64,000 nt of DNA from contig JBDRRK010000012.1 in the NCBI GenBank assembly GCA_043825775.1, positions 1,237 through 65,236 of the forward strand, in the 5' to 3' direction. Below, piece after piece: positions 13,713 to 15,141 of the stretch. Under the pieces are notes generated by a model, which searched no databases, had not been told where the DNA came from, and saw nothing but the letters and a program-made list of their open reading frames with translations. The DNA comes from an archaeon (lineage in GTDB: Archaea > Nanobdellota > Nanobdellia > SCGC-AAA011-G17 > GW2011-AR17). The translations under genes and the position numbers were made by a program. Each line of letters opens with the position of its first letter. Positions within the stretch are counted from its first letter, which is position 1.

Positions 13713-13985
13713 GTGATCGAAATGGCAGGAAATAAAACAAGAGATGGAATAAAACTTTCAAAGATTGTTAGCTCTTTGGGATCAATTCAAGGAATGGATG
13801 TTAGACCGGGAAGAAATCATCCTTATGTTGCTAGGATGGAAGGATATCAAGGAAGTTGTCCTATTGCAACTAGCACAGATGTAAAGAAGATGGTTGTACC
13901 ATGGTTGAAAAAAGCTACTGGAATTGATGATAATAAAGGAATGTATCAATCTTTGAAAAAAGGAGAATGGGCTTATGCAAGTTAG
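13713..13985 (+). CDS. Hypothetical small protein (weak HicA/YcfA-like resemblance)
   Basis: 90 aa; the 'GRNHPYVAR…VVPWLKKATGI' pattern is loosely HicA-like; overlaps the next gene by 11 nt. Confidence 0.3.
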   Translation: MIEMAGNKTRDGIKLSKIVSSLGSIQGMDVRPGRNHPYVARMEGYQGSCPIATSTDVKKMVVPWLKKATGIDDNKGMYQSLKKGEWAYAS

Positions 13986-15141
13986 AGGGATTGTAGATAA
14001 GATAGGAGAAAAAATGAGAAAAAGAAAACTTAATCAAGAACAAGAAAGAGATGTAGCACTTTCATATTTATGTGGAGTGAGTACTGATTTTATTAGTTCG
14101 AGGTATGATGTTTCAGTTTCAACTATAGGAAAATATGTAAAAGAAAGAGATGATCCATTGGCAAACCATTATAGACAGACAAATCCATGGAATAAGGATT
14201 TAAATGCTGCTCATTTGTGGCTTTATTTTGGATGTGAAGGTGTAGAACCTACTGGGCTTATTGATCAAGAAAGAGATAGAGTTGTTTTTGATATGGTTGA
14301 TGAAGCAGTCTTTATTCCTGGAATTGAGAGTATTGTAGAAAGAACTTCATTGGATGAATATGTTGCAAGGAAGAATCCTTATGATAATTTAATGACTGCA
14401 CTTAGAGGAAATTTAGATGCTAATCGGAGTGTTAGGAATGGGCTTATTGAAGTACTAGAATCTGTTTATGAACCCGGAAAAAAACTTTCATTAAGAGATG
14501 TTTTTGAAGAAGTTGGTGATAGAGTTATTGATAAAGTTATTGAAGGTGGTTTAACTTGGACAGATTTGAAAAAAGGACTTGTTCATGAAGCCTTAGATAC
14601 ATTAACAGAAAGAGAGAAAAAAATAATTGGTGATAGATTTGGTTTAGATGGTTATGATGTACCTAAAGATCAAAAAGAGATAGGAACTACTTATGGATTT
14701 TCTCATGAAAGAATAAGACAAGTTGAAGCAAGGGCCTTACGAAGATTAAGACATCCTTTAAGATATAATAAATTCAGAATTTTATCTGATTTGTCTACTG
14801 ATGAGGATGTTAGAGAATTTCAATATCAAAATGAAAGAAGAGAGATAAGAGATGAATTGTATTCAGAAATTAAGGCTGAAGTTGAAAGTGATTTCCTTGA
14901 TGATAAAAAATTCAAAGAGACTTATGGTATGTCTAGGAATGTAGCAAATAAACCTATTGAAGATTTGGAGCTATCTGTTAGGACTTTTAGTTGTTTACAG
15001 GGTAAAGGAATAAAATACATTAGTGATTTTGCAGATATTACAGAAGTAGACTTATTAAAAACTAAAAATTTTGGAAGGAAATCCTTGAATGAAATTAAAG
15101 AAGAACTAAGTAGATTAGGAGTGACCTTAAAGAATAGATAA
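13975..15141 (+). CDS. Multi-HTH regulator with a sigma-70 region-4-like domain and an RNAP alpha-subunit-CTD-like C-terminus
   Basis: '[53 protein letters not shown]' matches the sigma-70 region 4.2 consensus. '[55 protein letters not shown]' matches bacterial alpha-CTD almost residue for residue. Confidence 0.6.
   Translation: [388 protein letters not shown]

Follow-up and report, generated by a model that had tools for sequence, protein, structure and literature searches.

A single gene in a 64,000-nucleotide stretch of archaeal DNA (GenBank contig JBDRRK010000012.1, positions 1,237 to 65,236; the whole stretch is hereafter called the window) encodes a protein that unites two modules of the bacterial transcription machinery with a domain of its own. 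The product of the open reading frame (ORF) at 13975-15141 carries three nucleic-acid-binding modules in one chain. These are a helix-turn-helix (HTH) resembling sigma region 4 and embedded in a new helical domain (the N-domain), a sigma-70 region 4 of the primary type, and a domain equivalent to the C-terminal domain of the RNA polymerase (RNAP) alpha subunit (alpha-CTD). The protein is neither a sigma factor nor an RNAP alpha subunit. It is probably a native, stand-alone, multi-module transcription regulator that binds DNA in a sequence-specific manner and belongs to a DPANN-wide family. Archaea are free of sigma factors by textbook account, and the usual view of alpha-CTD is that it arose in bacteria as part of their polymerase.

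An earlier note on this DNA, made from the sequence alone, had proposed a region 4, an alpha-CTD and an additional N-terminal HTH for this protein, and all three have held up, far beyond chance. The Pfam family Sigma70_r4 matches residues 206-260 with an E-value of 1.4e-16 (60.2 bits against a cut-off of 24.1). A profile built from 32 family members finds its best region 4 matches in the Protein Data Bank (PDB) in RpoD and SigA (E 6.5e-25 to 1e-23), and the full-length AlphaFold model (pLDDT 74) matches isolated SigA region 4 in Foldseek comparisons. Judged by its sequence, the module belongs to the primary-sigma type and is closest to RpoD/SigA. Over E. coli sigma-70 positions 581-603, 15 of the 23 residues agree, and the equivalents of E585, R586, R588, Q589, R599, H600, P601 and R603 are kept. 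Among 61 full-length family members, the region 4.2 contact residues E585, R586, R588, Q589 and R603 are retained in 62%, 78%, 73%, 80% and 62%, respectively.

The C-terminal module is equally distinct. Pfam RNA_pol_A_CTD matches residues 322-379 (E 2e-21; 75.9 bits, cut-off 23.8), the family profile recovers PDB alpha-CTDs in one stretch with an E-value of 5e-27, and this part of the AlphaFold model superimposes on the solved alpha-CTDs 8y5t_A2, 1z3e_B and 9dvt_A with TM-scores of 0.91-0.94 and root-mean-square deviations of 0.8-1.0 Å at 43-48% identity. Identity to the RpoA CTDs of diverse bacteria is 50-63%. The window protein keeps the equivalents of E. coli R265, C269, N294, G296, K298, S299, D259 and E261. 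In the 61 full-length members, R265 and G296 are each found in 91%, N268 in 73%, K298 in 63% and S299 in 75%, such that the DNA-binding set R265/N268/C269/G296/K298/S299 spans 59-91%. The acidic positions D259/E261, which in bacteria contact sigma R603 on DNA, stand at about 70%, and about 60-75% of members keep this contact pair. The predicted DNA-contact residues of both bacterial modules are therefore largely conserved across the family. A long predicted helix links the two modules, and its length varies among members, as seen from insertions and deletions in the alignment. The matches are specific to the Sigma70_r4 and RNA_pol_A_CTD families and go beyond generic HTH or helix-hairpin-helix similarity.

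The remaining parts of a sigma factor or an alpha subunit do not accompany these modules. The window protein has no Pfam match to sigma region 2 or 3 at E≤0.1, and none to the N-terminal domain of the alpha subunit (alpha-NTD; PF01193 RNA_pol_L and PF01000 RNA_pol_A_bac). Without these parts, neither sigma activity nor incorporation into a polymerase is possible. Against full-length RpoD/SigA and RpoA chains from the PDB, the family profile aligns over a single stretch each, namely region 4 and the CTD. NCBIfam models for RpoD, RpoA and extracytoplasmic-function (ECF) sigma factors score 41-75 bits against cut-offs of 43-800. The best RpoD-type models reach 57-59 bits (cut-offs 555-779), the sigma70-ECF model TIGR02937 reaches 41.2 bits (cut-off 42.9), and the rpoA equivalog models reach 51-75 bits (cut-offs 228-523) over the CTD only. 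The possibility that a sigma region 2/3 is hidden in the N-terminal half was considered and rejected. An hhalign comparison with E. coli sigma-70 regions 2-4 showed no similarity to regions 2-3 and no more than a weak HTH signal (E 0.23, 20 columns), and Foldseek comparison of the N-domain returned sigma fragments only at E>3.7 with TM-scores of 0.3 or less.

The N-domain comprises about 190 residues and is specific to this family. Its HTH has a weak Pfam match to Sigma70_r4_2 (residues 18-55, E 3e-3), and AlphaFold predicts the domain alone with a pLDDT of 87.5 and a pTM of 0.83. Foldseek searches with this model gave no PDB match at E<0.7 and no match among viral structures (BFVD) at E<0.6. 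A TetR-like fold, with an HTH followed by a ligand-binding bundle, was rejected because the top matches, which are indeed TetR-family proteins, have E-values of 0.7-6 and TM-scores of about 0.2. Several residues are nearly invariant in the family, including C33 (96%), D60 (90%), N77 (100%) and H80 (95%) as well as L62 and Y66, and the characteristic motifs read RKLxxEQERxVALxYLCGV, DPLxxxYR and NxAH. The window protein matches the N-domain hidden Markov model (HMM) with an E-value of 3.4e-67 over residues 16-203; it departs from the family in the W-N-D-P-L-V-E-F segment, where it reads ERDDPLANH. The near-invariant polar residues suggest an extra site for sensing or for protein contact.

The family itself is large. 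An exhaustive profile search yielded 587 representatives (clusters at 50% identity) at E≤1e-30, and most of the top matches are proteins of 350-420 residues that align end to end. The order of domains is N-domain, sigma region 4, helical linker and alpha-CTD, to which the window protein conforms as a full-length single stretch. Of 274 proteins collected, 92 are recognised by the N-domain HMM at E≤1e-5, and most of these 92 belong to the 150 best representative hits. A further, word-indexed search that used the N-domain gave 22 matches, of which all contain Sigma70_r4 and 17 contain alpha-CTD as well. Short members of 264-320 residues that lack alpha-CTD also occur, among them the protein encoded at L002 941-1903 (P0004) and about 17 representative clusters (e.g. 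P0179, P0170 and P0202). The C-terminal tail of P0004 is divergent and its gene directly adjoins a convergent one, and some short members may be fragments. Several, however, end in a natural C-terminus (...LRHPSRSxxLxxFL) that resembles that of sigma-70.

To place the family among organisms, species-representative genomes from GTDB were scanned with an alignment of the N-terminal 75 residues. The domain was found on four contigs, and all four are archaeal: a Woesearchaeota metagenome-assembled genome (MAG), a Nanoarchaeia MAG, an 'uncultured archaeon' and a MAG labelled Methanosarcinales. The last contig (L008, CAYJUR010000011.1) has a G+C content of 31.6% and, like DPANN contigs, consists mostly of large ORFs that could not be annotated, so its label is probably a binning or labelling error. 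All family loci have a G+C content of 28-39%. A family-specific scan of viral contigs gave no match, no annotated phage genome carries both halves (sigma region 4 and alpha-CTD), and many of the 'phage' matches proved to be contamination by host rpoA or rpoD. The earlier note had asked whether the closest homologs are bacterial, archaeal or viral; the named family matches are archaeal, and the similarity to bacteria resides in the two C-terminal modules. A conserved operon partner was sought and rejected, as neighbour clusters are common only to near-identical contigs, and the chromosomal context of family genes differs from lineage to lineage. Lrp/AsnC-like proteins of about 320-340 residues with two HTH_AsnC/HTH_24 domains are encoded 0.2-5 kb from a family gene in three lineages, which could be a coincidence or a functional link.

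The window provides direct evidence on the host. It has a G+C content of about 30% and contains an archaeal rRNA operon, an archaeal RNase P RNA, class I lysyl-tRNA synthetase (LysRS), CTP synthase and archaeal-type phenylalanyl-tRNA synthetase (PheRS) alpha and beta, and no bacterial rpoA, rpoB or rpoC was seen within the 64 kb. The rRNA operon and RNase P RNA lie 9-13 kb from the gene. The host is therefore an archaeon, as the earlier note had assumed, and the gene is physically linked to its core genes. In composition the gene is typical of its surroundings. Its G+C content is 0.312 (window mean 0.307±0.029), its G+C content at third codon positions is 0.144 (0.192±0.040) and its codon-usage distance is 0.075 (0.088±0.020). 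The latter two values were compared with the other 33 ORFs of the window, and the gene falls within 1.2 standard deviations. This comparison, which the earlier note had proposed, gave no signal of horizontal transfer. Neighbouring genes encode transporters of the major facilitator superfamily, HTH regulators and a protein with an AP-endonuclease fold (by Pfam); no integrase or transposase adjoins the gene, and the nearest integrase is 18 kb away. Typical composition together with neighbourhoods that vary among lineages indicates that the family is native and old in these archaea. We infer that only the two C-terminal modules are of bacterial origin, and that they were acquired long ago and are now fully ameliorated.

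Regions upstream of family genes carry, in most of 15 non-redundant lineages, a canonical archaeal core promoter consisting of a B recognition element (BRE) and a TATA box (cGAAAg-TTTATAAA) located 30-36 nt before the ATG. The promoter in the window is less canonical, with TATA-like ATATAAGG and GTATAAAA. The upstream regions of the 15 lineages were searched for the best GC-containing 9-mer, with one mismatch allowed and on either strand. The resulting motif, GTTACTACT, is present in 9 of 15 family upstream regions compared to 7 of 86 independent control upstream regions. A sixteenth lineage, L030, added afterwards, carries one exact copy 28-36 nt in front of the ATG and another ahead of the preceding gene, bringing the lineages in which the motif lies beside the core promoter of a family gene to 10 of 16. 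For the 11 lineages that had not been used to spot the motif, the count is 5 of 11 versus 7 of 86 controls (Fisher p = 0.004), and none of 40 mononucleotide shuffles reaches coverage of 9 of 15, with a maximum of 7. There are seven exact copies in 198 kb of family-positive sequence, six of them intergenic where only 9.5% of the sequence is intergenic (binomial p = 5e-6), and three of the intergenic copies precede family genes. The motif is usually located 10-25 nt upstream of BRE/TATA, in either orientation, with a 4-nt A/T run before it.

Exact copies in the window (GTTACTACTT) are found in front of the unit that contains the gene and at two further locations (Table 1). The presence of the motif at the promoters of the family genes themselves suggests autoregulation, perhaps together with a small regulon, of which the genes behind the two further copies are candidate members. 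One of these is a 46-residue ORF whose product looks ribbon-helix-helix-like, which is our impression from its sequence. The other, gene 54649-55452, adjoins an ABC-2 permease gene.

Taken together, co-option of bacterial modules as DNA-binding units, which the earlier note had favoured, is also the best reading of the present data. In the mechanism that we propose, the recognition helix of region 4.2 would read a short sequence in the major groove, and alpha-CTD would occupy the minor groove of a neighbouring A/T-rich stretch, an arrangement modelled on PDB entry 3N97, where the two free modules bind UP/-35 DNA next to each other. The N-domain might add a second HTH contact and possibly sensing or oligomerisation. 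The protein would sit next to archaeal BRE/TATA core promoters, its own included, with GTTACTACT after an A/T run as the best candidate site, and from this upstream position it might modulate the recruitment of TBP, TFB and RNAP.

Several observations weigh against this regulator. Both DNA binding by the protein and recognition of the motif are predictions, and the view of the host genome covers one 64-kb window. The window protein has H in place of R584 and S in place of N268, and across the family the DNA-contact residues are conserved at 60-90%, never invariantly. About one-fifth of the family clusters stop right after region 4, so alpha-CTD is an optional third module that is dispensable in some lineages. 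The near-invariant polar residues C33, D60, N77 and H80 point to a function beyond that of a simple DNA binder. With respect to the motif, GTTACTACT is unlike TTGACA and was partly defined on data also used to score it. Moreover, when 15 real control promoters are drawn at random, the best k-mer covers as many of them as at family promoters in 8 of 150 trials (about p = 0.05), and for this reason the motif is put forward as suggestive. Another regulator may bind it, and the Lrp-like double-HTH protein encoded near the family gene in three lineages could be that alternative.

The same modules could instead form an architectural or nucleoid-associated protein that coats or bends A/T-rich DNA without a defined operator, in which case alpha-CTD would bind the minor groove of A-tracts and the HTHs would add affinity. 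A genome that is about 70% A+T would suit such a protein, R265 and G296 of alpha-CTD are the best conserved of the DNA-binding residues, and metagenomic proteins with 3-10 tandem alpha-CTD repeats suggest that generic DNA tethering is one use of this domain. We nevertheless consider an architectural role unlikely. The base-contact residues of region 4.2 are conserved at 62-80%, the sequence enriched at family promoters is a specific motif beyond a plain A/T run, and a multi-domain protein of about 380 residues is unusual for chromatin proteins.

A slightly less probable alternative is a selectivity or adaptor factor that works in a sigma-like manner, with the N-domain docking on archaeal RNAP, TFB or TBP while the sigma region 4 and alpha-CTD read DNA upstream of the promoter or present docking surfaces to bacterial-type activators. 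The high conservation of an N-domain that matches no known fold is in keeping with this, as is the retention of residues for activator contact and for alpha-sigma contact (R599, R603, D259, E261 and the 287 patch). The motif directly precedes BRE/TATA, the position expected of a site for an activator or recruiter. In addition, Castelle et al. 2021 (PMC8204110) reported DPANN genes classed as sigma-70, especially in Woesearchaeota (fam00359), for which mis-binning was ruled out, no anti-sigma factors were found and the mechanism was described as unclear. On the other side, the protein is without region 2, the element that binds core polymerase and melts DNA, its contact with archaeal polymerase is a postulate only, the promoters of family genes are ordinary BRE/TATA promoters, and the retained surfaces may be merely structural. 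A more specific form of this idea would be hybrid bacterial/archaeal promoter recognition. Here the N-domain would sit on archaeal RNAP, TFB or TBP and the cassette would read GTTACTACT and the A/T run 5ˊ of BRE/TATA, or would dock horizontally acquired bacterial-type activators. We hold that version to be improbable. If the N-domain does contact the archaeal basal machinery, however, a new principle of promoter recognition would be at hand.

The suggestion in the earlier note that the gene is a mobile regulator or an anti-defence factor fares worse still. A recently transferred regulator from a mobile element or virus is very unlikely, and nothing points to a role in anti-defence. Precedent for the cassette in mobile DNA comes from a 294-residue protein with an XRE HTH, sigma region 4 and alpha-CTD, whose phage-like contig also carries genes for Mom, Dam, PAPS_reduct and DUF3310, and the window contains an exact 25-bp direct repeat near the gene and an integrase/reverse transcriptase island elsewhere (32988-40115). 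But the gene does not stand out from the window in composition or codon usage, the repeats lie on either side of the Lrp-like gene instead and the integrase is distant. Furthermore, viral contigs hold no match to the N-domain family, no annotated phage carries both halves, and the family is vertically widespread in contexts of the housekeeping type.

There is only a slim chance that the protein is an inter-domain effector or decoy that is delivered to a bacterial partner, or acts on the DNA or RNAP of one, by titrating activators that contact sigma region 4 or alpha-CTD, or by occupying bacterial UP/-35 promoters. The modules do keep the determinants through which their bacterial counterparts engage promoters and activators, and DPANN archaea are generally known as obligate episymbionts, as Castelle et al. 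(PMC8204110) also describe them. Known DPANN hosts are archaea (PMC8204110), however, no secretion signal or delivery system was seen near the gene, and the conserved motif is found in the archaeon's own promoters. Finally, bacterial contamination or mis-binning of the contig, which might be suspected because both Pfam families are otherwise bacterial, is refuted by linkage within the window: the gene is contiguous with archaeal 16S and 23S rRNA, archaeal RNase P RNA, class I LysRS and archaeal-type PheRS, the same family is present in independently assembled archaeal MAGs, and mis-binning of DPANN sigma-70 genes had been ruled out by Castelle et al. (PMC8204110).

The gene product is identical to the NCBI MAG protein MFH1972446.1 (P0001), which NCBI calls in its long form of 388 residues and names after the alpha-CTD. 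An alternative start at ATG 14014 (M14) would give a protein of 375 residues. No residues precede M14 in 90% of 61 aligned family members, and homologues open with MxxPRKLxxEQER at this position. The sequence AGGAG precedes ATG 14014 by 5 nt, and GGAG precedes ATG 13975 by 9 nt. The choice of start affects the relation to the small ORF upstream, which the earlier note had described as overlapping: with ATG 13975 the two overlap by 11 nt, whereas with M14 they are separated by a gap of 28 nt. Because homologues start at M14, the overlap may be an artefact of start choice. Archaeal RNAP terminates at runs of T, and the oligo-T tract directly after the TAA stop codon is, on this general knowledge, a probable terminator.

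The small ORF itself is a real gene of a conserved DPANN small-protein family. Its 22 homologues have 78-123 residues and 46-60% identity, one coming from a named Woesearchaeota MAG, and their alignment has 15 invariant columns with the pattern MAGNKTRDGIKLS...G.NH.Y...CPIATSTD...M..PW. The protein has no NCBIfam match, no PDB profile match at E≤10 and no Pfam match at E≤0.1 save one irrelevant match at 0.061. In the window the small gene is probably co-transcribed with the sigma region 4/alpha-CTD gene. Other loci, among them L001 and L002, lack it upstream of the family gene, and elsewhere it precedes unrelated genes of 243-282 codons that do not match the family HMMs, and it was accordingly rejected as a conserved partner or toxin-antitoxin component. 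The pattern G-x-x-H ... P-I-A-x-S-T-D struck us as reminiscent of small RNA-binding toxins of the HicA type, an impression that no search bears out, and a HicA/YcfA-like toxin was rejected for want of Pfam, NCBIfam or PDB profile support.

A duplicated 24-bp element had also been noted on one side of the gene. Both copies are indeed upstream of it. However, the exact repeat is 25 bp long and brackets the Lrp/AsnC-like double-HTH gene rather than the gene of interest. Two copies occur in the window, where none is expected by chance, and the second sits in the putative control region shared by the Lrp-like gene and the unit formed by the small ORF and the regulator gene. The repeat core ATATAAGGTA occurs three times in 1.2 kb, in addition to a palindromic relative. 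We infer that the regulator genes clustered here share the repeat, the palindrome and the core as promoter or operator elements. A role of the repeat as element boundary or att site was rejected, given that there are only two copies, that they bracket the Lrp-like gene and that no integrase is nearby. A second pair of 24-bp repeats (12602-12625 and 13602-13625; 79% identical) contains a motif like GTTACTACT.

Table 1. Positions of features discussed in the text (window coordinates unless a locus is named; aa, amino acids)
Feature	Position	Strand	Details
Gene for N-domain, sigma region 4 and alpha-CTD	13975..15141	+	388 aa from the ORF list
Family-specific N-domain	14014..14583	+	aa 14-203; family HMM, AlphaFold
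Sigma region 4-like three-helix HTH	14023-14145	+	aa 17-57; start of N-domain, followed by conserved helical bundle
Sigma-70 region 4 (4.1-4.2 HTH)	14590..14760	+	aa 206-262; Pfam Sigma70_r4
Predicted helix linking region 4 to alpha-CTD	14800..14895	+	aa 276-307; secondary structure of full-length model
alpha-CTD-like helix-hairpin-helix domain	14938..15132	+	aa 322-386; Pfam RNA_pol_A_CTD, Foldseek
Oligo-T tract TTTTTTTCTTTTTTTT, probable terminator	15142..15157	+	right after TAA stop codon
Small upstream gene	13722..13985	+	87 aa; most likely start ATG 13722, as NCBI annotates; Shine-Dalgarno GAGGTGAT
Candidate operator GTTACTACTT	13610..13619	-	exact; 103 nt upstream of first gene of probable two-gene unit
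Exact GTTACTACTT	34226-34235		upstream of 46-aa ORF 34282-34422, just before BRE/TATA-like promoter
Exact GTTACTACTT	55532-55541		24 nt upstream of perfect cGAAAGATTTATAAA promoter of gene 54649-55452
Repeat copy 1, exact 25 bp CATACATATAAGGTAAAAATTAGTT	12536..12560	+	3ˊ end of Lrp-like gene; 57 nt upstream of HTH_10 gene
Repeat copy 2, exact 25 bp CATACATATAAGGTAAAAATTAGTT	13647..13671	+	contains TATA-like ATATAAGG
16-bp perfect palindrome ACCTTATATATAAGGT	12484-12499		upstream of HTH_10 gene; carries repeat core ATATAAGGTA
HTH_10 regulator gene	11826-12479	-	
Lrp/AsnC-like double-HTH gene, window	12555-13520	-	near family gene
Lrp/AsnC-like double-HTH gene, L025	15841-16827		near family gene
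Lrp/AsnC-like double-HTH gene, L029	1-911		near family gene
Archaeal RNase P RNA	22420-22731		
Archaeal large subunit rRNA	23779-26725		part of archaeal rRNA operon
tRNA-Ala			between large and small subunit rRNA
Archaeal small subunit rRNA	27121-28591		part of archaeal rRNA operon

Other parts of the window deserve brief mention. The region 32988-42384, in which G+C content is slightly raised (0.33-0.38), is a probable integrated element. It contains a gene of the tyrosine integrase family (32988-34220), four ORFs without a Pfam match (34417-39166), an Rfam RT-16 RNA (39233-39421; 87.7 bits) and, directly behind this RNA, an ORF with a reverse transcriptase domain (39528-40115). The latter two represent a reverse transcriptase together with its associated structured RNA, here in an archaeon. 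A RelA_SpoT domain protein of the small alarmone synthetase type, encoded at 42480-43532 on the minus strand, is another bacterial-type regulatory module in this archaeal genome. Lastly, four small genes in a row at 8329-10572 (plus strand), which encode a DUF6932/nucleotidyltransferase, an HD_4 phosphohydrolase, a DUF2087 protein and an APH-family kinase, could be a toxin-antitoxin-like or nucleotide-signalling cluster.

With regard to novelty, both domains, the architecture in precomputed Pfam annotation, the NCBI name and the existence of sigma-like genes in DPANN archaea are already known, and the result is not categorically new. What is new is the dissection of the family as archaeal regulators composed of bacterial polymerase modules plus a new domain. 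Full-text literature searches returned no paper on a fusion of sigma region 4 with alpha-CTD or on its function. The DPANN genes classed as sigma-70 by Castelle et al. (PMC8204110) are probably the present family: they come from the same organisms and bear the same KEGG/COG label, in that family member P0135 is assigned to COG0568/K03086 (RpoD) in the Tara annotation. The published account differs in treating the genes as sigma factors without domain dissection. Since these proteins are not sigma factors, no anti-sigma factor is to be expected, and the published puzzle of its absence is reinterpreted. More broadly, a large archaeal family has taken up both promoter-recognition modules of bacteria, joined them in one chain and retained them, apart from any polymerase and behind ordinary archaeal promoters. 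The protein, its candidate operator and the promoter geometry offer a testable handle on regulation in archaea that cannot yet be cultured alone.

Comparison with known systems defines both what has been kept and what has been changed. Like RpoD and SigA, the protein has a specific family match over regions 4.1-4.2, with the extent of identity to E. coli given above. Unlike a primary sigma-70, it is without regions 1.2, 2 and 3, and thus without core binding and -10 recognition or melting; its region 4 is embedded in the middle of the protein, the position of R584 is occupied by H, and the transcription system of the host is archaeal. With RpoA it shares the fold of alpha-CTD at 43-63% identity, and it preserves most of the DNA-binding '265 determinant' and of the surfaces '261' and '287'. 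It differs from RpoA in having no alpha-NTD (PF01000/PF01193), and hence no means of dimerisation or polymerase assembly, and in tethering alpha-CTD to sigma region 4 through a helical linker, where RpoA uses a flexible linker to alpha-NTD. The closest structural precedent is the ternary complex 3N97, in which the same two modules are bound side by side on UP-(-35) DNA and touch through alpha D259/E261 and sigma R603. The contact residues of this complex are mostly kept in the family, and its chains are among the Foldseek matches. The modules of 3N97 are separate polypeptides of the holoenzyme, whereas those of the present protein form one chain without polymerase and may occupy adjacent sites in a similar way.

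Reading of DNA by an HTH outside a sigma factor has parallels in the tetra-helical or three-helix HTHs of LuxR/GerE/FixJ effector domains and of archaeal HTH_10 regulators, one of which is encoded at 11826-12479. Those proteins belong to other Pfam families, whereas the present module is a true Sigma70_r4 joined to alpha-CTD. Other metagenomic proteins carry the same pair fused to SF2 helicases, Spo0A_C, Sel1 repeats or an XRE HTH, the last being that on the phage-like contig. Unlike the family described here, they are without the DPANN N-domain and often have 2-10 alpha-CTD repeats. Pfam confirms ten such repeats in P0145, three in P0187 and P0190 and two in P0220, and P0173 and P0197 have multiple matched stretches only (7 and 12). 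Some of the large proteins with multiple alpha-CTDs also carry sigma region 4, an SF2 helicase or Spo0A_C, and alpha-CTD is a widely reused repeat module outside RpoA. Like the present family, the other cassette proteins match as one contiguous stretch from sigma region 4 through the linker to alpha-CTD (profile positions of about 199-385), and for this reason the stretch appears to be an evolutionary unit that has been reused for DNA binding. The archaeal family and these metagenomic relatives together document the pairing of sigma region 4 with alpha-CTD as a reusable DNA-binding cassette.

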